Origin: Lingula anatina
Lineage: Eukaryota; Animalia; Brachiopoda
DNA length: 64,000 nucleotides
NCBI GenBank assembly: GCA_051362555.1
Contig: CM120643.1
Span: 14,296,644-14,360,643, forward strand
Direction: 5' to 3'
A model generated the notes under the pieces. It was not told where the DNA came from. It ran no database searches and saw only the letters and a program-made list of their open reading frames with translations. This document shows positions 71-56,100 of the stretch, piece after piece. The number at the start of each line of letters is the position of its first letter. Within the stretch, counting starts at the first letter, position 1. Position numbers and translations under genes: made by a program.

Positions 71-1310
71 CTTCTTGAAATCGTTGACTGCAGTAAATTT
101 TGGGACATCATTGTGTTTCACGCCGAAGAAAGTCTCAGTTTGTGTCTGCAGGTTCACCGCAATCTTCTCTTGAACGATATTACCTTCCTCGTGGAAACGA
201 ACGGCAAAGGTCTGGCGGAAAAAAATAAAAGCGAACGATAAAGAAAAGTATATTGTAAAATAGGAATTACTTGTTTAAATTTCCCGTTTTGTTTAATTAT
301 TCAAATGTCAATTTAAGCCTTGTGATTTTAAACCTCTAAAAATAGATGTAACAGAAACAAAAATTCAATAAGTTTGATGCATGTTATCATTAGAAGCAGT
401 ACTTACTTTTGCTTGCTCTAGCTTGGTTCGTTGTTAAAATAGATAAATGAATAAATAAATAAGGATCGAGAATATCAGTTTAATGCACGTTGTTATACCT
501 GTAAATGAACTTGTGTTCACTCAGTACCAAATTGTGGGAATTGTGATAGTTACCACTTCTCAAAATAACTAAATATGCTATTTATATTTTTTAATTATCT
601 AACGACATGCTACTGATTACTCTTGAAGTGCTTCTAAGAATGTTGGTTAAAAAGCTTACCGCCATTCCGTTTTGCAGATACCCTATGTAAAATCCCCCAG
701 TGATCACCAAGACAACAACAGCCACACCCAAGACGGCAACAGACACCTTCCAGCCCGTCTTGGATTGACCTTTGACCTCAGTTGGTCTGCAAGCCTGGAA
801 ATTAAAATTTTATTATAACTTGTCGTCGATAAAACTCACGACTGCGCAAGAGTGCATTTTGGTTAAGAAAAGATTGAATTCGGACAGGCAGACGGTTTAT
901 AGATTTAAAGCAACTAATATTATAATCAGCATCGTTTTTTATGTTTAATTTTGAATAAGGTTACTTCGGTTGGTTCAGTACCAATCTATAATTAATAGAG
1001 GCCGTGCAAAATACCTTATAATTCCTAATTTTACCGTTGTATTCTCAAGATATATTGGGATAAAGCTTAAAGGTATTTTCACAATGAATAAATAAAAAAA
1101 TGGTGTAAAATACGGAGTGGATTTTTTTTTTTTTTTTTTTTGATAAACATTAGTACAGCAAAGCGGCACTCTTAATGATGCTGTTGTGAAAAGGCATCTC
1201 TTTTCGGTTGCAGTTATAACGTGAAACTTTCCCGGAGGAAGCTTTAAAAAACTTACCGGCGGAAGTCCGACTTGGAAAGAATCGACGGTGGCGACTTTTT
1301 CTGTAGACAT
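71..1310 (-). CDS. BRICHOS-domain type II membrane precursor, tandem copy 1 (5' part only; continues past the window start)
   Basis: GT-AG exons 1257-1310 (MSTEKVATVDSFQVGLPP), 660-794 (ACRPTEVKGQSKTGWKVSVAVLGVAVVVLVITGGFYIGYLQNGMA, TM helix) and 71-211 (TFAVRFHEEGNIVQEKIAVNLQTQTETFFGVKHNDVPKFTAVNDFKK). All are phase 0 and near-identical to copy 2. Probable non-coding first exon ends at 1680. Confidence 0.85.
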
Positions 1311-2240: not shown

Positions 2241-4416
2241 GATACGTAGATACGTTACCGCAAGATGTTATGATTTCAGAGAAATTCGATGATAGAGATT
2301 GTCTGATCGCCCCGTGTAAACACCGATCATGTATGTCTACTGTCCCATCTTTCTATATGTGAAAATATTATATGAAATCTGCAAGGTGATTTTGTTGTTC
2401 AGTGTACATGTGCTGCAGATTAAAAATCATGAGGCAACATCATGTGGGGTCGCTCGTTACAAAAGTAATTCATGTGGGGCGTTGCTTTTTTTGCTCAGCA
2501 TATATAGTTATCTGGTTATTTCCATGTTATTGTCATAAACGCCAATGCTCCGAGGTAGACCCTATAAAAAAAGAGGACAAAAAGAGGAAAATATAAATAA
2601 GTACCGGTACCAGTACCGCACGCACACCCAATGATCGAATATGTTATTATAAATTTGCATAGTATGTTATGTCATTTTATGTGGTTTTGAGATTTATTAG
2701 TTGACAACCCAGCGAGCATTTATTACAGTTAACTGTTGTTAGAAAAAGGTGTCAAACAGCACACTCCCGTAGGCTCCGTGACTTCATCTATGTCAAAGAG
2801 ACTTTTACCAACTGTGTGGTTTGTGGCGAATCTAAAAAACAAATAAGCCTATGGTTGTGTTTTCAACAGTGTGACTGATGAAGTTCCAAGTGTTGGGGCG
2901 AAAGCTCTCAGGTACGCTTTCAGCTTATGGTGTAGAAATACGAAGAGTTTTTAAAACTATTTTTAAAATAAAAATTTTATCATTATGAATCATATAAATC
3001 ATTTGATCTGCTAGAGTTTGCGTCATTTGTGCATTTTTAAAAGGCATTACACGTGAATTGTAGCTATTATGAAGATCAATGTCAGGCTTTCTCAAACCAG
3101 AAAACTCTCCCCTTCGCCATAACTAATAAAATGCAATAATTTTCTAAGAATAGTGAAATCTGCTGAAGATTGAAGATATGGAGAGTGTGGAGCTTTCAGT
3201 ATAAATGATAAAAACATAAAAAAATGCAAGCATCTCTTAAATTAAATGCATGCATTATTGACTATGATTATTTATGTTATTGACTATTTATCTGAAATAT
3301 ACAGTAATAAAGACCATGTTGTTTGGCCAATAATTTTTTCTTGAATTGTTATCCTTTAGAAGTTTACAGCCTAAAACAAGCCGTCACTTTAACCTAGCTC
3401 AGTAACGCATGCACAGACTTTTTCTGTCCCGAGTCTTGGATGATTTCTTGATATCTTAATTCTTCACACATCTATCTATTTATTTTTTGAAAATATTTTT
3501 TATCTATTTATTTTTTTTCATTTATTTATTATTTTCATGAAATTTAGCTGTGGGGGGAAATAATTTTATGGAGGCTGGAGAAGTCTGACCAAAACAGAAT
3601 GAATTGATTTCAATTAAAAAGAAAATTCATAAAGTTCTTCATAGACACTACAACTATTTGTTATGCTATAAATTTTAAACAATCCATGATGTATGACTAG
3701 TATGTCAGTTATATTGGATTTATCATTATATAGCATCTCTGCCTCTAATTTGTTTATTGCAAAAACACCTATAAGGAAGTAGATGTTGATATTTCATTTA
3801 CACAATGCCGAGTTCCTATGACCAAATACCGCCCATTATGATGCGTATCCGAACATCATGGATCTAACGTGAAGTCGACTAAATCTTTGATGATGACTAT
3901 TTGAATATAATAAAGAAAGTGACTACCATTAAATGAATATTTATTGCACCTTGTGTACCGGTGAAAATGTATACGTGGATATAAATATATAAGAATGTGA
4001 CATTGGTTTACAATATTAAACACGCAACTAAACATGATAACTATAATTAGGAATGATTAAATGTAAACAATCCACGTGGTTATCTTGACATTTCATTTAA
4101 CATCAGAGTGATACAAAATGTGAAGACTCAAATGGTCATTTTAGGATTTATTTTGTACCTTGTCAATATTCTAACAAATAGAGCTGTAATTAATGTATTT
4201 ATCACTCAGATTATAGCATACATTGTTCTATCATAAACAACATGATATATTATGAAAATGCACTTTTTAACATGCAAGCATGCATTCTATATCGTCAACA
4301 GATTAGTTTGACCCGGTAGAGAATTTTAAGATATTTTAAATATTTAAAAGATATTTTACATTTTTCAAGACAAATTGTGCACAAAAATAGCGTAAAGCCA
4401 TTCTCTCTCGCGATGT

Positions 4417-7400
4417 TTAGAAACTAACTGTGAAGATATGTCTCCCAAATACACGAACGCATACAGCTACACTTCGTTGTGCTTCTCTTAATTCTGGTGC
4501 TACGCGTCTCTGCCCTATAAAAGAAAAAAAACCTTAAATTATTTCCCGACTGATTTCCGAAAATATGCATCAACGATTTTTTAACCTTGAAGTTTGAACC
4601 AACTAGTAAAATTAGGAAAAAAGAACAGAACACGAGGGTTAAAATTGAGAGGAAGAAATAGCAATCTGCGGAGTATTTTACTATGATGACAGATCTATAA
4701 AGACTAATATGTCACTTACTGGAGTTGACTCCTGGAGAGCTGACAGGTACAGTCCAATATACAGGTAAACCTTGGCAGTGGCTCTTGATTTCAGCAGGTA
4801 AGAAAGAAGCGTCCCCAATGGCGGGCTTGACTGTCTTGAAATAGTGGTATTCGCGTGGCACCTCATCCCAAGTTTCGTTCTATAACGATAATACAATAAG
4901 ATGTTAATGAGCATAAATTTAAATTGCGAAACTGAAATTCAACTGTATAAAAAATGCGACCAAATCTGGGACAGCAGTGATGCATCACATTTAATTGAAA
5001 ATTAAGTAACGACCAAAGTATTAGATAATTAGTTTTAACACACAATTTACAATTAACAAGTGACTTCAACACTTGTCCATTACTTAACGGTCTTGCTCTT
5101 AAAATATGTTTTGTCACGCTCTACAAACATGCTGCTGTTGACGGCGACAATTTAATCACGCAGTCACAACTAACGCAATGTCGCTATCATCAGTTTATGA
5201 ATATTTGAGTAGTTTTTAGTTGCAGCAGCTATATAAGCCAGTGCATATTAGTGCTGGAGGCAGTCAGGTTGTTTGCTTCAGTTCGTAATAAGGCAGATGT
5301 CTAGAACATTTTGTACGTTTGAATTTAGTTGTTAATTTATATCGATATGGATGATATAAGTAAATCGTCGTCATCTTAACGGATTAAATAAGTCAGGGGT
5401 TATGTTTCGAGTTCATGGAAGATGTCATCTTTTATAATGATATTCTGTTAATATGATTCTGTATATTAATATTCTGTACATTATCCTTTTAGACGATCCT
5501 GTCTTATCGTGGCCGTCATAGTTGCTGCTAAATTTAAGTTGCCAAATATTATGTGAGTATTATTATCAGAAAATATATAACAAAACTAGATCTTCAAAAT
5601 ACTTAACTATGTATTTATGGTGTCATGTTACATTGTTGTCGTTAATAACATGTATTTTGCTCGGCCTCTCTCTTTTTTAATTTAATTTGTGTATACATTT
5701 ATTGTATTTCAGTCTCTTTGTTATTTATTATTTCATTATTATAAATGTATTTATTGCTTTTTACTTTAGTTTCATCACTACCAATAGCACTAGCATTATG
5801 TGTCATTACGTAGGTGAACAATAAAGTAATGACTTAAAAGTCATGTTTTTGAGACTTGATGTCAGCAGCAACACATGCGTTAAGGCTAACACGTCTTCAG
5901 TCGCGTGAACGATTGCGTGCGTTCCTTGCTTTTTTACCTTGAGTCTGTTGTCGTTTTCTAAGACACCAGCTGCCACTTTTTATATTAGGTAGCCAAATAT
6001 CGATAATTCTAAGCGACCCTGTAACTGCCGATTTTTAAGCTCCAAAATCTTAAAACTAAGACATAAATATCTTTGACATGCCACCAAAAGTACTGAAGGA
6101 AATCTCTGCGAGCAGTTTGTCTACTCACAGCGTGGGCATCCAGTTCGTTCTTGAGATCCTGGGGTTTTGGGAAGGTTGTATCTAGCACTCGGACGTAGCA
6201 GGCCCCGGCAGAAGGTACATGAACAACGGTGATGCCCTTTAAGATAAAAGTGGACAATGATTTTAGTTAAACAGAAATTTTGTGACCTCAAGCACCTAAG
6301 TATGAATGATTGATATGATATGATATTTCAAAACAGAATTGTCTTTCCAAAATAATGAAACTACATCATATACAATTGATCGATGGAATTCAATGCGCCG
6401 TTGTTTGTAATCTACATTTTATTGTCTGAGATAAGAAAACGTCGAGCTAAGGAAAATAAAAAGCCATGAAGCATCATTTTGAGCGCAATGCTTAATGTCA
6501 ATATTACAAATTTAATATATTTAAGTTTCTTTAAATAAAACCTACCTGCTTGAAATCGTTGACTGCAGTAAATTTTGGGACATCATTGTGTTTCACGCCG
6601 AAGAAAGTCTCAGTTTGTGTCTGCAGGTTCACTGCAATCTTTTCCTGAACGATATTACCTTTCTCGTGGAAGCGAACGGCAAAGGTCTGGTAGAGAATAT
6701 AAAAGCGAACGATAAAGAATAGTATATCGTAAAATAGGAAATACTTGTTTAAATTTCCCGTTTTGTTTAATTATTATTAAAATGTCAGCTTAAGCCTTGT
6801 GATTTAAAACCACTAAGAATAGTTGTAACAGAAACAAAAATTTCAATAAGTAGGCCTACATGTATGTTACATGTTATTGTTAGAAGCAGTACTTACTTTT
6901 GCTTGCTCTAGCATGGTTCGTTGCTAGAATAGATAAATGAATAAATAAATAAGGATCGAGAATGTCAGTTTAATGCATACTGATATACATGTAAATATAC
7001 ATGTGTTCACTCATTCCAAATTGTGGGAATTGTGATAGTAACCACTTCATAAAATAACTAAATATGTTATGTATATTTTTGAATTATCTAACGACAAAAG
7101 CTACTGATCACTCTTAAATTACTCTAGAATGCTAGTTTTAAAAAGCTTACCGCCAGTTCGTTTTGCAGATATCCTATGTAAAATCCTCCAGTGATCACCA
7201 AAACAACAACAGCCACAGATAAAACAGCAACGGACACCTTCCAGCCCGTCTTGGATTGACCTTTGACCTCAGTTGGTCTGTAAGCCTGGAAATTAAAATT
7301 TTATTCTTACTTGTGGTCAATGAAACTCACGACTACCCGAGAGCAAATTTTGTTAAGAAAAAATTGAAATAGGACAGAGATATATGTAGATTTAAAGCTA

Positions 7401-7733
7401 CTATTATGTTGATCAGCGGCGCATTTTAAATTTATTTTTGAATAAGGTAACTTCGACTGGTTTGGTTGCATTCTCAAGATTCATTGGCATATAGATGTGC
7501 CAGCCTTAAAGATATTTTCAAAATAAGTAAATAAATAATGGTGTAAAATACAGAATGGAATGATCATATGTCCGGCGAAACGATACTCTTAATGGTGTAG
7601 TTGTGAACCGGCACCTCTTGTCGGTTAAAGTTATATTTCAAACGTGAAACTTAACTGGCGGAAGCTTTAAAAAACTTACCGGTGGAAGTCCGACTTGGAA
7701 AGAATCGACGGTGGCGACTTTTTCTGTAGACAT
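4417..7733 (-). CDS. BRICHOS-domain type II membrane precursor with C-terminal furin-released peptide, tandem copy 2 (complete, 231 aa)
   Basis: Exons 7680-7733, 7151-7285, 6546-6686, 6129-6236, 4720-4879 and 4417-4514 join in frame (696 nt). TM helix, then the BRICHOS hallmarks NDFKQ-GITVVHVPSAGACYVR and SHCQGLPVYW (conserved Asp, two Cys, YW), then RQRR and VAPELREAQRSVAVCVRVFGRHIFTVSF-stop. Confidence 0.88.
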
Positions 7734-15525: not shown

Positions 15526-17717
15526 CACACACACAGACTCACATACACACACACACACATACACACACACGCGCGCGAGCGTTTTTATAATAATTAAAAA
15601 ATCATAATCCAGGACCCACTGCAACTTTTACCTGAAACACTTTCACCGATTTCGCAATGAGATCTCTGGTCCACTGGGTCAGGTGGCCGACAGACAGGTC
15701 AGTACAGTCCGTGAAGTCCACTAGGCCGTAAACCTGGGTTTTTTCGTCCTTCAGTAATATATCCAGGGTGAGTATGATCAGCCTACACATATCCACGATG
15801 ACGTTAGGTCTGGCCGGGTCATAGGCTAGGAAAAGTGGACTCAAGATTAACTGCACTGTGCCTTGGCTGGGCGTAAGGAGTAAAAGACTTTAAAGCGGTT
15901 TTATCCCGTTCCCGGTTTAAAGTTTTCCTCCAAACTCAAAAAATTTGTGTTTATCGAATGTGTTTATATCTAAAACTTGCTTTTAACTAACACATTTATT
16001 TCATATTTGCTCGTGGCCGAAATCGATTATTTTTAATTAAAATGTATATTTTTATATGTTTTTAGCTGAATAATCCATCATCATCATTATCATAATCATC
16101 ATCATCATTATTATTAATGTTGTCTTGTCCAGAAAGTTTCTGTGCAGACAGATCATATATCTATTTGATATCCTCTGAGAAAAAAGGCGATATCAGTAAA
16201 AAATTAAGAAATCATTTAATGTTTCATTTATGTTTTTCTCAGTCTTTCAAAGAGACTTTTATATTAGCCTATTTATATACAGTTAAGCTAGGTCCTATAG
16301 TTAAGTGAAGTCATTCTCGAGCCAAGTTCATTCTAGTCAAGTTCATTCTACATAGCTTCGTACGCCCCATAGCAGTAGGCCGCATAAAATGTTTTAAATT
16401 TTGATATTCAGAAGAATACTATAGTCCACAGACTAAGAGAAAGTTATTTCTATAATGGAAACCTTCAACACCTACACATCGTAGTGATCACCACCTTTCG
16501 CCCTTTGTCGTCACGCCCAGGTAATGGAAAGAGAACTCTGAAACAAAGAGTTCATAGGGTAAACAATAGGGACCACATGTCACTGTATTAAATGAATAAA
16601 AGATTAATTTGAAGAACATGTTAATAAATAAAATATATAAATAAATAATAAAACACAAGATAATCATCTAACAAATAACTGAGTGAAATGACGATTGCTG
16701 TTTACGATTCTACAACTGCAACTTGCATTTAAATATGATTTCAATAAGAAATATGGAAAGCGCGACCAAAGTCCGTTTTTACTGAGAGGTTCACCCTGAT
16801 AATTCGCCTGTATGTTTTATATATGGGAGATATTATCCTAAATTTATTCTTGTAGAGGTTACATTCTTAAAATTATCTGTAAAAATCAGCAAATATGTTG
16901 GAATGATATGATTTTTTTCGTTAGTCATAGAAGTTTTCAGTTTAAGTGAATCAAAGTTGTATTTCTACAATTTCTACTTTTAGTGTGTAGTGCGACCGCT
17001 AAATGGCAGCACTATCGCCATTGGAACCGTTACGTAACGTATTTGGTTTTTACTTACTTCATCTCTAACAGTTCTATGAGCTTGGGATCGGCTGGGTCAA
17101 GGTTTTCAAACCATTCAGGCACACCTTTATCTGGTACGGACCGCATGGTGTAGTAATTGTCAAGTTTCTCCTGCGCCCGAAGTTGGCTGAATTTACTAGG
17201 GCGCAAGAAGCTGAGCAAGAAGTTGTCATCTACGTTAAAAGAAAATTGTTTTCAACACATTTAATCCTAAACTGAAAAATAAATGGAACCAATATGAACA
17301 GATCAGACAGCAAATAGAGAGCAACTAAAAAAAAAAGAGGTAAGACGAAGACGCATATAAGTACTAGTACTTTGGCGTAAGCTAAAATAATATCGCGATA
17401 CCTAGGGTCATAGTGCATTTTCAATCAGCGAATGACTTATGACTCATACCCATTAGGCTTTACACCAAGCTTAGGCGGCCTTTCTTCCGTACAAATGCCG
17501 TTGACAATAAGCAATTTTAAAAGATGAGAAAATCGTGTCTTAAAACTAGTTTTGAAGTGCACCGTAGGGATGCACGCAGTGAAATGCGTCACATTTAACT
17601 TCTTTTTCTTCTTCTTTCCGTATAGTGTTATTGGGATTTTTCCTTTTTGAAAAAGGGACGGTTTACTTAAAAGAGATTATGGACTGGTCTCCCCGTCCCT
17701 CCCCCCCCCCCCCCCCC

Positions 17718-19147: not shown

Positions 19148-20321
19148 CCTTTTTAATACAACAATACACTTCTCGTTCTGTTCGGTTGAATAATAATAAA
19201 AGTGCTGTGTCTCTATGAGTGAAAATCTTTAGAATTTTCGTAAATGGGCTGTAGGATTTTTTCTAGGGATGGTGAGTCATATCGCTGTTTTATGTCAAAA
19301 AGCGCATTCAGAACAGATGATCCGAGGACTAACTGATCCGACGACTAAAAAATGGCCGACCCCGCTTAAAAAGCGATGCCGCTAATTCCCTAATGGTCTA
19401 TCAGGAAAGTGAATGTAATGGTTATATATCCAGACAAATAGTGTCTAGTCATAACATTTGACAAAACCTTTAAATCAAGCTAAGGACATTTAAGAAGTTT
19501 GGATAGGGAAAGATGAAAATGGTTGTGGAAGTTACTCAAAACTAAATTGCACGTGCCCTCATTTCGGTAGTTTTGTTATCTAGACAGTTTAAGTTGTTTA
19601 TAAGGCCAAATAACAGATACAGGTGATATGTAGAAGTCAAAGTTTTTAAACATTGCCATGAAATGAAGACAGATTCTGAACAAGCTGCTGCTCTATGATG
19701 CCGAGTAGGCAGCCTGCTTCAGAAAATATTGTGTTGGTCTCGTCCCTGAGCTGGCTAGGTGGGCCCTACGCTAAACTGTTCAAATTTACCATTAAGTTGC
19801 TCTTGGTCATAAAAGGGTCTCTGGTTTGGGCTTGTATTTGATTGATTCCAACTCACTGACTGAAGACAAGGTGTGCAGCAGGTAATTCGATGGTGCCAAA
19901 AGCATGGGCCAGGTTACTGGAAATAGAAGACTGCTAATATTCTATTTGTTTTGATGCATTCTCTTCTTTGTGGGATCTCAGTGTTTGAAAAAATACTTCT
20001 AAACAATCCGGTATTCCTGCCAAGGGTTATAGGTAGGGAGTTTCGAAAGACGTTTGTTTTACACACTTTTTTATGGGTAGTTTTAGCTAATGGCGCTTTT
20101 AGATCCCAGTCCACCGCAGAAGTTGTCTGCATTGCTGCTCTATCGACAGGGGCTTCCTCAGAGGTCGTCTTGCATAGCCTAGTCGGAATTTTGTTTCGTA
20201 ATCTGAAGTTTTCATATATAATGAAATATATTAGTGTGGTGCATGCATGTCTTTTTTTCTTTCAATTTGGTTAAAATACTAGTACTTAACCGGAAAAGAA
20301 TTTCATCAGCTGTGTTAAGTT

Positions 20322-20503
20322 ATAAGAATGATGTGATTTTTTTCTTCAGTCAACAGCTAATATTGAGATAGGTTAGTGAGTAGAGGCTATACACCTGGAT
20401 AGCCTCATTCCCTGAAGAAGATGTCCTGATAGACATCGAAATATTGGAGGTAAAACCTATCTCAATATTAGCTATTGACTGAAGAAAAATCACATCATTC
20501 TTA
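20322..20503 (+). mobile_element. Penelope-like element remnant: about 50-bp inverted repeat enclosing a minimal hammerhead motif
   Basis: Arms 20322-20373 and 20454-20503 are near-perfect reverse complements. The loop holds CTGAAGA-A-GATGTC-CTGATA-GACATC-GAAA-TATT-GGAG (20412-20449). Confidence 0.6.
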
Positions 20504-23500
20504 GTACTTAGCCGATTTTTGATAGATTATCTATTCACATTCCATCAAGTCTATTCTAATAATGGGTTTATTTATTTTATCATTACATTTCACATCATGG
20601 TAGACTGGTATAGTATGCTAAGGTCGTTTTATATGGTTTTTGGATTCATATAATTAATAGATCCAAGATGACAGCTGACCGTGAGGGCAGAGGTAATGCC
20701 CGTACAGTTTGCAGATAACATGTACTGTTGGTGTGATTCTCGTAAATGACTATTACTTTATTTGTATATATGCCAGTTCGATTTGCATTATTATCGTCAT
20801 TTCTCTGATGCTAGAGATTAAGCACGCACAAGCGCGTGCACACGCACACGCACACACACGCTACAACAATCTGCTAAGGTACCGATTGCAGCAGAGATGA
20901 TAATTTCTTTTCCCCTCCAGATGGCGCTATAGAACGGTTTGGTTTGTCAAACCTGGCAAAAACTGCTCATATTGCAGCATGCAGTAGACCATATAAGGAT
21001 AGCCAGTGACCTACATTATGTCATTTTACTTTGGGGTGTGTAAGGTTGTGAAACTTAATTTAATTAATTTATTTTAGTGTATTTTGAAATATGCGGGAAA
21101 CAAAAGCTTCCTATATATTACTATTTTAGTACATTGTTAATGAAATTTTGTCTGTCAAATTATGGTACTTGATAAAGAGAAAGGGCGGTCACCTAGCCTT
21201 TCCTGCCTTCTACCCCGATGGATCATTTGAAACGTGAAGCCTTGAAAGAGATGTCACTTCTTCTTCTTCAGTTCTGAGTGACCAGGGTGTGGATGCTAGG
21301 CGGTCAGGATACCAAGTATATGGATATTTCAGTTTTAACCGATTCAACGAAACGTTCTAAGACAGTGGTTTTAGGTATTTTTCGAAAACGCATATTTGAT
21401 GCATTTTAAGAGCGGGTTTGACGCCTGCATGTTGTTCACTGGGTTTTGCCATCCATCATTATTTTCCCCACGTGATATTTTGTGTCCTCCATGCCTCCTT
21501 TATTTCATCACGTACCTCATGACAGTGAAAATTGCAGTTGTACCTCATGTTAACTACGCAGAATTTTAAACTACATCGGTAAAATTAGTTGTGGCAGTAA
21601 ATTTTTACTTACGAAATAGACACGATGGGGAAAATTCTGTGGTATGGCTCTTTTCGAATTTTGGTTGTTGAAATTTTGTAATTGGTTTTAATACGATTGT
21701 GTCAAAATTATAGAACAGCAAAATAGTCATAATTGAAAATTAAAGAACAGGATAACGGATTACTGATAAACTTCCATTTCTAATTTTGGCATGATTTCAC
21801 AAATAATACTAAAACGTAATATTTCGATCCATTGAAGTATGTGACCTATTTAATAGTTACACACTGCTTTCTGCGTGACTGATTATGAAAGCAGACATTT
21901 TCAAGGCATATGGAGCGAAATGCTAGCGCCAGTTTGCAAGTAATGTTTGAACGTAATTTTGATATTTCTCATTTATAGCTAATGTCAATATCACGTTGTC
22001 TAATCAAAAAGCCCCGCCCAAAGCAATTTACCATGATTCTTTAACTTCCAATGTTAAAGCCTCTCGTTAAAAAATTAAATAGCAGCATATTTAACACTGC
22101 GTAGTCATTAGTAACAAAATTTGTTATATTTAACCAAAGAATAAAACCGCCCCTTATGCCTTTAAACATGTCTTACTATAATCATAAGTCTGAGTTTGCC
22201 CCCGTGGCGTTTGTAAAACTATTTGCGGTATTCTTCAGCAAGACAGCAAGTTGTGACTTGATATTTACTTCTATGCAAATGTAATGCTCAGAAATACGGA
22301 AAACTAGTCCAGGAAAATTCGAAAATGATGATATTTAACCTTTTCATGAAAAGAAAAAAAAGCACCTGATCATGTAATTTTGCTCATTTGGTGATTTATG
22401 TTACGTCCTTTAAAGTGGTTTGAAGAGAAATAAAACGTACTGAAGCAGTCTTAAGTTATTGATCTTACAAATTGAACATAATCAATTCAAACAATTTTCA
22501 AAATTATTTAATGCTTAATTGACAAAATTCTATCAAAAAATCAAAAACTTTCATATTTTTTATTTTCTAAATGGCGAACATTTCACTCGTCACCTGGACC
22601 ATAGCATTTACAATATTTTCTCTCGCTTCGAACTCCCGGAATTAAATTTTTGATTTTGAAGGCATGCAATGCGGTTTAGACCTTTAATAAAGCAATTAAT
22701 TATTATTATTTTTTGGAAATTTCAGCAATTTTCCTTTTAGGTTTACTTTATCCAAAAACCGTTTCGAAAACTACGATCGTTTGGGGTTCCAAATTTGTAT
22801 AATTCTATCGCCAAGTGTGAAATCACACGTCTTCATCTCCACAGCGAGGGTGACTCAAAATCTAGTTACTTAATACCTCGTATCTGTAAAATCTTTTTAA
22901 GCTTGAAAACTTGCTGTCTTGTCGAGTGAAAAGTGTTATTTTACGGACCACAATCGATCATTTTGTTTGAGTAATGGAGTATATAAAGTACACACATTTA
23001 AGGCTCAATTTGCGATAATTACATGTAGTTGCAAACTGATTTGGCTAATCCAAGTCTACCTGTTAAACTGTGCATTAAAAGAACATGAGTATACTAAACG
23101 ATTTTTGTTATTTATCTAAATTTGCTCTTCTTGATTGTAATCTTCATATTACTTATTTTTTCTTAAGTTTAGGTGAGTAGTATATGCAATATATATATAT
23201 ATATATATATTTTTTTTTTGTAATTATTTGTTAATTATGGATTGCTTTTGTGGCATAAATTTGTTGAACAGATCTCACTTTTGCATAAAGATGAAGGGAA
23301 AAGTCAGGTGATCCAAAGTTTCCCATTTTCAAAACTCTGCTGCTTTTTAACAATTCTTTCTCGGCAGCGTCTTCAGTATATCGAGCAGCAGATGTATAAA
23401 TGATGTTTATGCTCTCGTATGAGAACATCATTTATGTTCAAACAAGTTACAAACCATTTGTTACAATTTTTTTTTTACTTTAAAATAGAAATGTAAGGTG

Positions 23501-29075: not shown

Positions 29076-29327
29076 GGGACCATTCCCAGGCCATATCGTA
29101 CTAACTGTGGATCGATCTATCTCCAAGGGGATTCTTGCTAAATTGCAGTCATCTTAAGCGGCTTAGATGTCTGTCACACCTACTAAGCTGCTAGGATGTA
29201 ATTAATCATCGTTTAGCAGCTTTAGTAGGCGTGCCAGACATGTAAGCCGCTTAAGCTTAAAGCAATTTAGCGAGAAACCCCTTGGAGATGGATTGATACT
29301 GTTAGATCTATCTAGGGATGGGAACCC
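29076..29327. mobile_element. Palindromic MITE (related copies about 34377-34590, 53675-53908, partial 61545-61675)
   Basis: Long imperfect internal inverted repeats, e.g. atctccaaggggattcttgctaaattgc / gcaatttagcgagaaaccccttggagat, with GGG...CCC ends. Confidence 0.7.
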
Positions 29328-29888: not shown

Positions 29889-32800
29889 ATGATGCTGCGC
29901 ACTTGCCTGTTTGTCGTCTTTTGTGTCGCTATGCTCATCGATAACGCAAGTAAGTTCGACTATAGTGAGGATCGATAGCATATTCTTTAAGATTTAGTAC
30001 AGAAACATCAAACGTGCGAGTGAAATTTGACGTTTGAACATTTTGATAGGATTCCACATCATTCCGTTCTTCTAGGAAAAAAAATTAAAGATAATTACTT
30101 TTTTCTTTACTTTGTCTTTTAAATTCGAACAAATTTTGGTATGTATAAAAATGTAATATTTTCCTTTTAAATAGGCAATACATGTGTACCAAAGCCAATC
30201 TTAGTTTAAAAGCTATTCCCATGAAAAAAATCTATTTTAATATGAAGTCCAGGTTTATACGTGTACTACCTACCAAAAGTATCCTCTCCAAATGAATGTT
30301 AGGGTTTGGAATTCAACGTGATGTCACAAACTGTGTTCTTTCAAAACCCATTTTCAAGATTAAATTGACTCCAAAATGAGAAGTAATCATAGTCATTACA
30401 ACTTTAATATTGTTGACGGCGCCAAAAATAGTAATAATAATAAATTAAATATAAAGTAAATTTGTTTTCTCGCCAAAGTTCTGGGATGATTAATTTAAGC
30501 AGGGTAACTATAAATGGGACAGTATGATTCTTTTTGCTATACAAACCACAGAAAATTCACCCACCTTTTTGTAGTGCTATATATTAATACTGACATTGTA
30601 ATTTGTAGGTTCTTACGCATAGGCCCATGGTGTACACATAATTTTGATATTGCGGACAATGCGCATCATTTAAATGAGTCAAAACTGTTTTTTACTTTCA
30701 ATAATAAGCATTTTAATACAATAATTTTGGTGGTAATGCATTGCATTTACTTTCAGGAAGCGTAGTAATTTTGGGTAACTGTATACAGGATCCCAATTAT
30801 TGTTCCCAGTGTTCTGGGGGCAACGCTGGTTACTGCTGCCAGGGATGCGCCACTCCATCAACAGCTTCGTTTGGAACCTTCTTCTTGTGCCAATGTCCTA
30901 CCGCTCCTCCTGTAGTGGTGAGTGTTTTAATCAACCCATAACTGAACGGGATTCGGCAAGTAAAGATTTTTTTGCCTTATCCGCTCAGATAATGGGCACT
31001 AAGCAGTTGTTTTGTGTTGTGTGATATTGCTGTTGCATCAAAAGTACGTCGGTGAGAATTTGCTAATTTGAGCTGATGATGTTTCAGCATCGTTTTGTGG
31101 GTTAAAAATTGTAATATTGCTTTCAAACAGATCGCCCTCACTTGTAAAGCTAACAACACTCTATTATAGGCCTATGCAATTACAACAATGTGTACAACAA
31201 ACTGGTGCCATGAAATTTCCTTGTAAGGCTTCTGATTTTGTCAGGAAAGAAGCGAACTAATCCCTTTGTTTCATATAGTATCTGTATAAACAGGGGGTTG
31301 TATCTCCTCATCGAAACGCTTTTAAGTCAAACACTGTCACCAGATCATAGTTCACGCCTACCCTCTACCAGGGCGACAGATAGATTTTTTACAGATATTC
31401 ACAGATATGTCTCTAGATAGATAGACGGTCATTTTGGTCTGTAGTCACCCTGTTGAAAAATCTTGACTACAGACCAAAATGACCGTCTATCTATCTAGAC
31501 ACATATCTGTGAATATCTGTAAAAATCTATCTATCGCCCTGGTAGAGGGTAGTTCTCGCCCTAGTCGTCAGTGATGCCAATTTTGATAATAAGATCTTAC
31601 TAATTTACAGAGTTACGTGGGAAACCACCCACTACCTCACGCCATTTTGCAAATCAGTAATATGGACGATTAACGCAAAATGTGCAGAAGCACGTGTGTG
31701 GTGCATACAGCAAGGAGAGGGATATTCGTGCTTTAATGTGTTTATTTTTATTGCACTGATATCAAGATAAAATTTCCACATAAAGGAAACAGAAAAAAGG
31801 TTTTTTTACCTAATATATGCCTTCATATCACGTATCAAACCGCCTTAAATCTTGCGCACATGGTGAGATGCGTGCTAAGCTACCAGCCTGGTGAGGTTAG
31901 TGCCCATTTGGTCGCACTCACTATTGGTGTGGTTCGCACTTCATACAGTCCGAAATGAAGTAGAAATCCACAAAATTAAAATGGTTGATTTTGAGTTATA
32001 AGGGGAATTGTTGAATGGGATTTCTCTCCAATATCTTTAGCATTTAGCCAACAAGTTTCTGTAAAACAAAATGCATTTCAAGAATTCATAATTCACTCAA
32101 CTCTTGAAAGACCAGTAGATCAGCTGGTGACTCACCGTATGCACCAAACTCAATATGGCTGGTCGTGAGATAAGTTCCAAAACAGGATGTGGAACAGGAT
32201 CTGTTGATTACATCTTTTATTTGATTTTAATTTGACCATGCGATTTCTCTGAATGTTTTTACATCCATAGACACTACGCAATTTAGATAAGCAATTTAAA
32301 TATTGCTGCAGTGTTCAAATTGTGGGAGACCGAAAATGGTCTATAACATGACACGGCTATTTGTTGAAGAACGTGTAACCATTTTCTAACTATTCCTGAC
32401 AGCAGACGACCTTGTTTTAATCTGATAAATGGCTAATAACAGTGACATTAAACGTTACGTTACAGGATTCACCTCTTTATTGGGAATGTTAACGCACATA
32501 AAACTCATCCATTAACTGGTCCTGAAAAGGGCAACTTACAAGAGGCATTGGAAAACATCCAAAGAATTTTAGGGATTTTCTGATAGTGCGCCACATTTTT
32601 GTTAACGTCATGCATCCTTTATCGATTGTGTTCATAAACTTATACATCTATGAGCGCATTCCGAATAGCGGACTAACAGACCCGTGGATCAAATATGGCG
32701 ACCCACTAAAAAGCTTGCCGCTTAATTCCCAATTAGATACTGAATAGATTCCACGCGGTAATTATGCAGCAAGCCTTCAAGTTGGCGACCATATTTAATC

Positions 32801-49400: not shown

Positions 49401-50158
49401 TCACATCTCTCCTACTTGGGTTCACTTACTTAGGGCATTACAACGGCCGCATTACAACTGACAGAGCATCTCAAGGAAGACCGTCTATGACCAAGATGAC
49501 TGCAAGGTAACAAAGGGTGAGAAAAAAAGCTCCACCTTGTGTCAAACAGTTCTGATCTTTAATAACTTACCACATGCTCCCGCTGTTATCATTATTCCCA
49601 AATGCACTAAATGACCCATCATCATGTTGATAGTTTAGCTCTCTCTCATATCCTGGTAATCAAAATGCAATCATTAGACTACAACAAATTCAATTTATTT
49701 TCAAAGCAGCAGTTAACTATATAAAGTTTGCCATCTACGAGTTACCTGAAAATATTCACTTCAACACAACAAAACACAGGACTGGGGCATTTAAGTTTTA
49801 TGAACAAAGCCTCAAAAGTATAAATTTACCTTACAAATCTCATAATATTACTTGAAACTTCTCATAAAATACCCCATCTGTGCTCTGATAATCTACACAC
49901 CTTAGTTCTAGTTAACCTTAGTTCATTTATTATGGATACATACCCAATTTCATGAATTTGGTGGTCTTTGCACGGATGTCATTAGAGAGTCTGTCGACAC
50001 CTTCCAGATATTTTCTCACTACAATGTTGGGCACCAGCCCCAGCATGTTCTGCTCCCCGCAGCCAGTGGGTTGTCTCACCAGTCTCTCCAGACCATCCAG
50101 GGTGGACCCCATTATATCACCTGAGAAGAAAGCATTGGAAATGATTTAGATCCAGAAA

Positions 50159-53134: not shown

Positions 53135-56100
53135 TTTTAAATAAGATTCACAGTACCTACCTTAGCAGGGGTGGGGCCCACACCCAGTCCCATTGTGTCA
53201 CTGACGGCAAAAGCACTTGCCACCCAGGAAGTAATGGTATCTGGCACCTTGGTCTCAAATGATACTCTCCCATCAGACCTTAGTGAGAGAAATGAATTAC
53301 TGTTACATCGAGATACACTGACGACCATGGTCTAGTCACAATTGTATATAAAAACTACAAATCAACATGATAAATCTGAATTTTAATTTATTGAACTTTA
53401 ATTTAAGATAGATCCTACAATGTGAATTTGATGTTTACTTTTTTTTTGATAGTCATTAAAATTTTACTTTACCACATGAAACTTTTTTCAGTAAGAAAAG
53501 TATCAAAACTTTGCAAATGTTATTATAGCATTTAATTCACATATCACTTGTGCTGTAAAATCATAAATATAAAAACAGAAATCATACCAACAAATATATT
53601 GGATAATATACATGTACATGATGACGTTGGTATTTACAATCTATACCATATCCACAGTGCCTCAACTATCACTAAGGGTGTGTTCCCAATGAGAGACTGT
53701 ACTAGGTAGATCAGTCCAACTCCTTGGGAACTCTTGCTGAATGCAACCAGATTAACTGAATAGCATGCACCTCGAGCAGCACAGGAAAATTTATCACCTG
53801 TTACCTGCTCAAGGCGTGGCAGTCAGTTAATCTGATTACATTCAGTAGTCCTCGCGGAATTGGATCTATCTACCTAGTACGATCATAGTTTCCTTGTGAA
53901 CACACCCTTATACTATGGTGCCTGGGTGTGGATAGATATTAATTTTATTATCTAACGGTAGCTACTCACAAATTTCAAACACCCCATTTATTTCAACTGT
54001 AATAGGTATTCTTTAAATCAATTATTTTAGCCCCTTCATTGAAAAAAAAAATGTTTATTTTATAATACTTTTCAGTCATCTTTTTCAGATATTACTAACA
54101 AATCATTGTTTTGGGGGATTCCTTGTTATTTGATTAATTTTGTTGAAATATAGTGGGTAGTTACCATATAACAGAGAGCATGCTGTTAGTTGAGAATAAC
54201 ACAGTTAGCATCAAGTTATTTACTGAGTATAGAGGAAATCAAAACAAAGAAATACATGCTGACAAAAATGGGGACTCCAATTTAGGCATGTGTGTTGTAT
54301 ATCTGCATGTGTGTGCTGTACCAGTAGAGCTGCACGTGTTGTGTATAAGCATGTGTATGTGCATGTGTATATTTGCAAATGACCTTACACGGATGTTTAA
54401 GGCCTCACAAGTATTATTTTAAAAAACTGACTTGGGATGAGAAAAAAATTGCAAGAAAAACTGAGACAGTTGAAAAATTCGGTGAAGAATTAATGCTCTT
54501 GAAAACATAAGGACCTTCCTATTTGTATTCTGTAGGGAAATAACTTAAGTTAAAACCAAAAGTTCTAAAATAATACAATTTAAAATATTATTTTCTGTGG
54601 CTCTGAAACAAGTGGTTAAAATAAAAATGTCAGTGTCCTCAAGTTCTTTTTTCATTTTTAGAATAATTAAGATCTATTTTTATGTTTAACTTGACAATTT
54701 TGTACAAAAATTGTATAAGGGGGTTTATCACATTTTGTAACTTAAAGAAACACGAATGAGTATTGTGTTACTGTTTAAGTAAGCAAAAGCAATATTAATA
54801 AAACTGAAAAGCAACAGATAAGATTTGCAAACAAGCACTGCATCTTAAACAAAAAAGATAGATAAAAAGTTCAATGAATCATAGAATATAGACAACATGC
54901 AAAATAATGTGAAAAAGAATAAATATCAAGGTTAAAAAGTATATTTATGTTTTTTTTTCAAACTGGAAGGAAAAATCAAATGGAAATTAACATCACAATG
55001 TCCTATACAGTCATATGTATTAGTCAAATTCAGTGCATCTGAAAAAGATGAATCAAAAACTATTGAAAGTTTTTAGTTTATAACAATTACTCCTATTCAA
55101 AAAGTGCTAAAAGAAGGCAATGATAATTAGTTATGATGCAATACATAGATCTGTTGATCCACTTGGTTAAAGACTAAGTCTAATATAGTCTATATAGCTA
55201 TTAACTGTTTCTAATCTATGTTCTTGGCTGCTGGGGCAATGATGAATGGAGATGCCTATGTAACCAGTTTAAACAGACTGTTTTTAGTAACTTGAGGACA
55301 TTCATTTTCCACATATAGCATCTTCAGCAGCTTCATGCCCATAATCGACCACAAACAATCAACAGCCATGCATAAAAATACCATGCTTTGTCTAACCTAG
55401 CAGGAATTTACCCAGAAAAAGAATCTCTCCAAAGCCAAGTTTCTGGAAAACTCTTTCTAACTGTTTCAACAGGCTCCAGAGTTTTAGTAATACTTGTGTC
55501 ATCAACTGGATGAAAGGTCTTTTCAGAATCTGTTGCCGCAAAATCGTAGTCCATTTCATCATAATACATGTATTCGAAGGCTAAAAACAAATCAGCCATA
55601 GCTAAATGTATGCTTGAAAGTCCCTAGAAACAGCATGGTCCAAGACTGGCAAGCCAGAACTTAAGAAATATTGAAACAACAAGCACATATTCATTTTTTT
55701 CTAGATTTTTCTGGAATATGTGGTAATCAGGTATGACCAATCTAACCTGCCAAATGTCAACAGATAAAAGAGAAAGGCAAAAAGACAAAAATCTAAGGGC
55801 ATCAGGGGTAGCTTTCAACATGCTATGAAAAATGCTACTAACATTTTTAAAAAACTGTTTGGGACCATATGCACTGACATATACTACAGGATAGGCCACG
55901 TAAACTATAACCAGTTCTAAATGACATAAAAACCACTTTGAGCATCAAAGTTGGACTAAATACCAATTCCCTTGCTGAATTATCAGATTAAACATAGTGC
56001 ATCAATAATTCACTGACTACAGAAGCGCACAATTATGATATTCCCTTCATATAAAAGTTTTTTCTCATATTCCCATTCTATTTTCTAATAACCTACATGT

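Follow-up and report, generated by a model that had tools for sequence, protein, structure and literature searches.

The window analysed here, i.e., a stretch of 64,000 nucleotides from the brachiopod Lingula anatina, carries a BRICHOS gene on its minus strand (7733-4417). In a model built from coordinates, this gene has seven coding exons (723 nt) in an open frame encoding a protein of 240 amino acids (aa), and all six introns have GT-AG borders; introns 1-5 are in phase 0, intron 6 in phase 1. Its features are listed below, along with those of a partial tandem copy (copy 1, the complete gene being copy 2).

4417..7733, minus strand: full exon set of the gene model (7733-7680, 7285-7151, 6923-6897, 6686-6546, 6236-6129, 4879-4720, 4514-4417)
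7680..7733, minus strand: coding exon 1, 18 aa, cytosolic N-terminus; read joint 7284/7679
7151..7285, minus strand: exon 2, anchor of type II membrane topology, spanning roughly residues 35-57 (helix 35-77 in the model of the paralog)
6897..6923, minus strand: exon 3, micro-exon of 27 nt, linker; read joint 6686/6897, with reads placing 27 letters between exons 2 and 4
6546..6686, minus strand: exon 4, strands on the N-terminal side of the extended BRICHOS fold, conserved Asp116; read joint 6235/6545
6129..6236, minus strand: exon 5, BRICHOS core, Cys132, profile positions 14-48 of PF04089; read joint 4879/6129 (1540 reads in run X7)
4720..4879, minus strand: exon 6, C-terminal half of BRICHOS, Cys190, Pfam profile positions 66-91; its last base opens the Arg209 codon
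4504..4514, minus strand: start of exon 7, rest of RQRR (R-x-R-R), a furin-type site with predicted cleavage
4474..4503, minus strand: spacer, residues 213-222, ending in Arg222; length and charge differ among alleles and paralogs
4417..4473, minus strand: core, residues 223-240, V/I/F-rich 18-mer with Cys227, then the stop codon; 9/18 identical to the paralog, the two listed read changes within it being synonymous
4135..4416, minus strand: 3' UTR, where AATAAA lies at 4152 and numerous reads end within 4135-4159
1310-1257, 794-660, 433-407 and 211-71, minus strand: coding exons 1-4 of copy 1, which then runs off the window

The most hydrophobic 19-mer of the 240-aa protein is found at residues 35-53 (KD mean 2.58), and the order typical of the superfamily (hydrophobic region, linker, BRICHOS, C-terminal beta-prone region) is present. 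The layout of the original prediction, with a transmembrane segment, a BRICHOS domain, RQRR and a tail, is upheld by the seven-exon model, the hydrophobic segment and the Pfam matches described below. RQRR corresponds to residues 209-212, the Arg209 codon being split by the 4720/4514 splice, while the tail (residues 213-240, VAPELREAQRSVAVCVRVFGRHIFTVSF) has 28 aa and a single cysteine (Cys227); RNA reads confirm that the furin-type site is made by the last splice and that the peptide has its own last exon, as had been proposed. From the donor to copy 1, an R-x-K/R-R motif within the first 16 codons follows 2 of the 161 AG sites, and the second of these (4509) lies inside exon 7. Neither an amidation Gly nor a repeated peptide cassette was found in the sequence of the 240-aa protein.

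Transcription was studied by mapping five (X1, X4, X7, X8, X9) of the nine RNA runs available under the species label, the source animals being 1-5% divergent from the window. Expression is high in the three runs of one study (X7-X9) and near absent in the two others, with a depth below 1 on exon bins in X1 and X4 and of hundreds in X7 and X9; at exon 6, the depth reaches about 1300-2400 in X7-X9 under a looser mapping setting that takes all paralogs together. The predicted last junction (4720/4514) is supported by reads that stop at 4514 and run on into the end of exon 6 (157, 93 and 95 in X7, X8 and X9, respectively), and by 646, 361 and 338 further reads in which 4719 is joined to 4496 by way of a 14-letter segment identical to 4513-4500. 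Alternative acceptors downstream of exon 6 (e.g., 4602) were rejected, since no bin at 4520-4683 exceeds a depth of 5, whereas the exons reach hundreds. In nearly all X7 reads, the Pro215 codon is missing and Arg218 is replaced by Thr, so that the exact allele of the window is absent from the RNA seen. Among the listed read differences that were classed in the exons of copy 2, 16 of 20 are synonymous; in codons 222-240, all three listed changes are synonymous, whereas the spacer shows the Arg>Thr change and the codon loss. Reads also contain an upstream non-coding exon for both copies (1344/1679 and 7770/8137, minus strand), and many molecules start or end near 1716-1735, which is a likely transcription start.

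BRICHOS domain, paralogs and family tree

Taken singly, two exons give weak matches to Pfam BRICHOS (PF04089), exon 5 over profile positions 14-48 (E = 0.0019) and exon 6 over positions 66-91 (E = 0.0032), each under the cut-off but in the correct order. A paralog from the same species (LOC106161061, XP_013393369.1, a predicted model named “uncharacterized”; hereafter P0001) was the sole match of a protein search with exon 6 (1 of 19 candidates) and scores 49.8 bits against the same profile, for which the cut-off is 25. P0001 and the 240-aa protein are 100% identical over exons 4-6 (47/47, 36/36 and 53/53 residues), and since P0001 passes over this identical stretch, the domain also stands above the Pfam cut-off in the 240-aa protein, as expected from the original prediction. 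The conserved BRICHOS Asp and the two Cys (D123, C139 and C197 in P0001) correspond to D116, C132 and C190; both Cys are invariant in the 72 aligned rows, which were chosen for having them. An AlphaFold model of P0001 computed from this 72-row alignment has a long helix at its N-terminal end and a BRICHOS domain rich in strands that is modelled with confidence (mean pLDDT 82). Foldseek returned no match at E<=0.001, Bri2 and SP-C BRICHOS appearing weakly at ranks 4 and 8, after ependymin-like proteins. In the Atlas, BRICHOS clusters rank first both by features and by structure, with an ITM2-named cluster at the top (score 0.95), while a search with the tail of the paralog gave no feature match.

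The two proteins are identical over exon 1 as well and belong to a common family, but P0001 has a longer anchor than the 240-aa protein, a poly-Arg spacer and a Cys-free core of 23 residues, the last two following RQRR in the predicted model. Its core shares 9 of 18 residues with the core of VAPELREAQRSVAVCVRVFGRHIFTVSF, R-x-F-G-R and T-V being kept and Leu replacing Cys. A protein search with P0001 recovered P0001 only (1 of 695 candidates), a search among shorter proteins yielded no match, and none of the 220 pattern matches of a metagenome scan was confirmed. PDB sequence matches to 4D2 (summed repeats of a designed protein) and to polymerases (E about 0.1) were set aside as irrelevant.

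The tandem duplication noted originally is real: copy 1 (1310-71) is 86.5% alike to copy 2 over about 1 kb, introns included, and carries 20 differences from it in 357 coding nt, with 12 codons changed synonymously and 7 non-synonymously, P0001 being a further paralog. Reads contain joints linking exons of copy 1 to exons of copy 2, which would fit paralogs homogenised by exchange, although mapping ambiguity gives the same picture. In copy 1, the acceptor of the 27-nt micro-exon reads AA rather than AG (433-435, minus strand); the micro-exon may be skipped in frame in this allele, or the AA may be an assembly error. Further tails were translated by hand from the reads. In one, Arg222 is preceded by just two Ala (joint 4477/4719, with 29 reads in X7 and 56 in X9), another reads AEGK then SVS (X8; a mixed consensus with an agreement of 0.84), and a third has a different, longer hydrophobic run directly before the Cys codon (313 and 90 reads). 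The spacer of one read-derived tail appears to be acidic. As P0001 and the read-derived tails follow the same RQRR, the Lingula family consists of a constant body and at least four tails.

Across the 1.84 billion representatives searched with HMMER, 85 matches were found at E<=0.001, all of them but P0001 at 22-34% identity and most of them combining a basic site with a tail rich in Cys. Precursors of this sort, whose tails are very diverse, are thus common across marine invertebrates, which makes one more family unsurprising. Among the 79 rows with both BRICHOS Cys, the sequence after the first basic site has no Cys in six rows and one Cys in two, some of these being fragments, while 11 rows have no basic site or too short a tail. 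A tree was inferred from these 79 BRICHOS bodies (132 columns, midpoint root), six of the 85 matches being dropped because of their length or of misaligned Cys, and vertebrate ITM2 rows not being included. P0001 falls in a mainly membrane-anchored group of 10 rows with borderline support (95/82), together with an Arenicola marina precursor, a Lamellibrachia protein and P0017, whose tail aligns weakly (E = 0.083) to the 20-residue peptide of PDB 7ALD, which we take to be capitellacin. In a different region of the tree is P0009 (XP_068701742.1), a BRICHOS precursor of the coral Montipora foliosa with a poly-basic site and a Cys-free, acidic tail of 21 residues; this tail alternates strongly (beta moment, p<0.001) and is a candidate for self-assembly.

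The C-terminal tail and its known counterparts

The last 18 residues are indeed rich in V/I/F/T (56%) around the single cysteine, as originally described, and their beta propensity exceeds that of every other 18-residue window outside the membrane region. The 28-mer and the 18-mer each have a net charge of +2, falling to +1 with the Arg218Thr change of nearly all reads, and the core of P0001 has +1; because of these low values, an antimicrobial action of the tail is plausible at most. Arg222 is a lone basic residue and does not form a furin site, yet several tails have a Ser223 start after a basic residue, which suggests that a second cut may occur there.

That the core folds as a beta-hairpin, as first proposed, holds for its beta-prone composition and not for the fold itself. 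A hairpin turning at F-G-R would be geometrically plausible: a three-residue loop would oppose V224, V226 and V228 to F240, V238 and F236 on one face. However, the beta periodicity of the 18-mer does not exceed that of shuffles (p = 0.21), a helical moment is significant for the 28-mer (p = 0.019), and the exon-7 peptide alone, modelled by AlphaFold from a single sequence, comes out as a helix with a pLDDT of 90. Such modelling of short peptides tends to favour helices, for which reason this helix is weak evidence. In the full model of P0001, the tail shows partial strands at low confidence (pLDDT 51-58), and a two-copy complex model of the 31-residue exon-7 peptide scored 0.03, a value that speaks neither for nor against pairing. 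An intramolecular disulfide closing a hairpin is ruled out, given one Cys in the tail and none in that of P0001, and the conserved C-terminal Cys pair of the ITM2 type is missing from both.

Several known systems resemble this architecture. In the general model of BRICHOS proteins, the domain keeps the tail shielded along the secretory pathway, up to a cut by a furin-like enzyme (PMC9714404, PMC10182729), and worm precursors of BRICHOS peptides consist of a membrane anchor or signal, BRICHOS, a dibasic site and a C-terminal peptide (PMC10745061). Polaricin (Amphitritides sp.) is a 19-aa BRICHOS peptide with one Cys and an intermolecular disulfide (PMC10608444), whether it is a helix or a dimeric sheet being unresolved (PMC10608444, PMC10745061). 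Like VAPELREAQRSVAVCVRVFGRHIFTVSF, it is BRICHOS-derived with a single Cys, but it comes from an annelid and its activity was tested, whereas the Lingula Cys is missing from the closest paralog and is known here from sequence. In Heteromastus filiformis, HfBRI-20 and HfBRI-23 are Cys-free predicted hairpins from membrane-anchored precursors, which share with the Lingula protein the anchored BRICHOS layout, the dibasic site and a tail of about 20 residues; compared by description, this annelid set is enriched in positive residues (HfBRI-28 has a net charge of +7), while the Lingula tail has +1 to +2 and a variable spacer (PMC10745061).

Moreover, preproalvinellacin is a tandem multigene family with its peptide in the last exon and signs of exchange among copies, as in the Lingula genes, but the pattern is reversed: alvinellacin paralogs have an identical peptide and a varying BRICHOS, whereas in Lingula BRICHOS is identical and the peptide varies (PMC5431198). 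Alvinellacin also has two disulfides, against one Cys in VAPELREAQRSVAVCVRVFGRHIFTVSF (PMC5431198). ITM2B/Bri2 is likewise a type II membrane protein with the extended BRICHOS fold and a furin-released, beta-prone C-terminal peptide (PMC9714404, PMC10182729), but in ITM2 proteins the tail is conserved and has a Cys pair, unlike the variable Lingula tails (PMC2751770). Finally, BRICHOS group A has no C-terminal cysteines and poorly conserved tails, which recalls the Cys-free tail of P0001 (PMC2751770).

The suggestion of a new type of BRICHOS peptide must consequently be abandoned, since polaricin with its single Cys (PMC10608444), the Cys-free HfBRI-20/-23 (PMC10745061) and group A (PMC2751770) were already described. 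The locus is expressed and apparently undescribed, and adds a brachiopod gene to a known kind of precursor; possible novelties are the phylum (Brachiopoda) and the combination of an invariant chaperone with a variable cargo. No paper on brachiopod BRICHOS proteins was found in the openly accessible literature searched, subscription papers lying outside its scope, nor were BRICHOS proteins found in the Lingula genome paper and one supplement; a 2018 paper on Lingula immune genes may already mention these genes. Beyond extending BRICHOS-released peptides to brachiopods, the family offers a natural set of several different cargo peptides accompanied by the same chaperone domain, useful for testing recognition by BRICHOS, while its low charge and high hydrophobicity make it a weak drug lead.

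Possible roles of the tail

We give a probability of about one half to the reading that the gene belongs to a transcribed multi-copy family of Lingula whose products are BRICHOS proproteins anchored in the membrane, with a predicted cut at RQRR and an aggregation-prone tail of 28 residues serving as a defence peptide. By analogy with the family, the type II membrane precursor would enter the secretory pathway, where BRICHOS would hold the V/I/F-rich tail and prevent its aggregation until a furin-like enzyme cuts after Arg212 and frees it; a second cut after Arg222 might yield an 18-mer. The freed peptide, weakly cationic, hydrophobic and able to switch between helix and beta forms, would then bind and disturb microbial membranes. 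This estimate follows from how the precursor is laid out, from the several gene copies with their variable cargo and from the tree. The alvinellacin-like tandem organisation, the constant body and the strong, run-restricted expression also speak for defence; against it stand the net charge of +1 to +2 (+1 for the core of P0001), the acidic spacer of one tail, the unsupported hairpin and the borderline tree.

Because of the low charge, two rivals stay in contention. The tail could be a secreted, self-assembling building block (a functional amyloid or beta-sheet gel in mucus, cuticle or coat), with BRICHOS delaying assembly until extracellular release by furin, a possibility that we consider unlikely. 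The weakly charged, V/I/F/T-rich core with its top beta propensity and the very high, restricted expression agree with it, as do the Cys-free, non-cationic and alternating tail of P0009 and the gel formed by a nicomicin fragment (PMC6265681). Yet a fast turnover of tails between young paralogs would be unusual for a structural polymer, P0009 sits in a different part of the tree, and BRICHOS and ITM2 terms were not found in one supplement of the paper reporting the Lingula genome and shell proteome. Almost equally unlikely is the idea that the working product is the shed BRICHOS domain, an extracellular anti-aggregation chaperone like ITM2B or gastrokines, the tail being a loosely constrained, built-in client. 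The invariance of the body between paralogs and the mostly synonymous read differences in the exons of copy 2 would fit such a role, but gene conversion could also account for an invariant body; similarly, the top rank of the ITM2-named cluster and the Cys-free, poorly conserved tails of group A (PMC2751770) point this way, and relaxed selection could give variable tails, whereas the core retains S-V, R-x-F-G-R, I and T-V across paralogs with synonymous listed read changes, and it is the spacer that changes freely.

A further, quite unlikely proposal is that of a brachiopod swap cassette, in which gene conversion would fix the body while the last exon swaps low-charge, Cys-poor peptides acting by controlled self-assembly, with a switch from helix to beta that forms amyloid-like nets or gels, and not by cationic lysis; if true, it would, with the coral P0009, point to furin-triggered functional amyloids as a class overlooked in marine invertebrates. 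The version of the original prediction, a new peptide class working through a single-Cys disulfide dimer, is now very improbable. An unpaired Cys in a secreted peptide is likely oxidised, polaricin offers a precedent (PMC10608444), and the Cys codon shows no read difference among those listed, but the description of polaricin and of HfBRI-20/-23 (PMC10745061) leaves no new class. The tail does have one Cys, as stated; dimerisation through it cannot be the principle of the family, because the closest paralog has Leu at this position. Cys is thus no family feature, given the Cys-free tail of P0001, and judging from these tails the single cysteine is incidental; under the defence reading, Cys227 may still dimerise this one copy in the manner of polaricin while being dispensable for the family. 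Least credible is a role in signalling, with the tail acting on a receptor as a hormone or pheromone: a convertase-type release and a restricted expression would suit this role, but the sequence lacks the amidation Gly and the repeated cassette, and the composition is strongly aggregation-prone.

Neighbouring features of the window

The remainder of the window holds several further elements. A thioester-protein gene (TEP/CD109/A2M-like) extends over about 62810-50060 on the minus strand, with a GCGEQ thioester motif near 50064. It includes six short stretches (about 62810, 61780, 58544, 57838, 56892 and 55449), each composed of a variable segment followed by a common motif of 11 residues, which look like mutually exclusive bait-region exons; such exons are described for snail BgTEP2 and scallop CfTEP (PMC7016707). 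Four palindromic elements of about 200-250 bp (31358-31552, 29101-29305, 20316-20510 and 53673-53910), with opposite-strand self-matches that are 71-92% alike, are probably MITE-type transposons. Finally, an open frame on the minus strand (15602-15889) presumably resembles an exon of a CRAL-TRIO/tocopherol-transfer protein.
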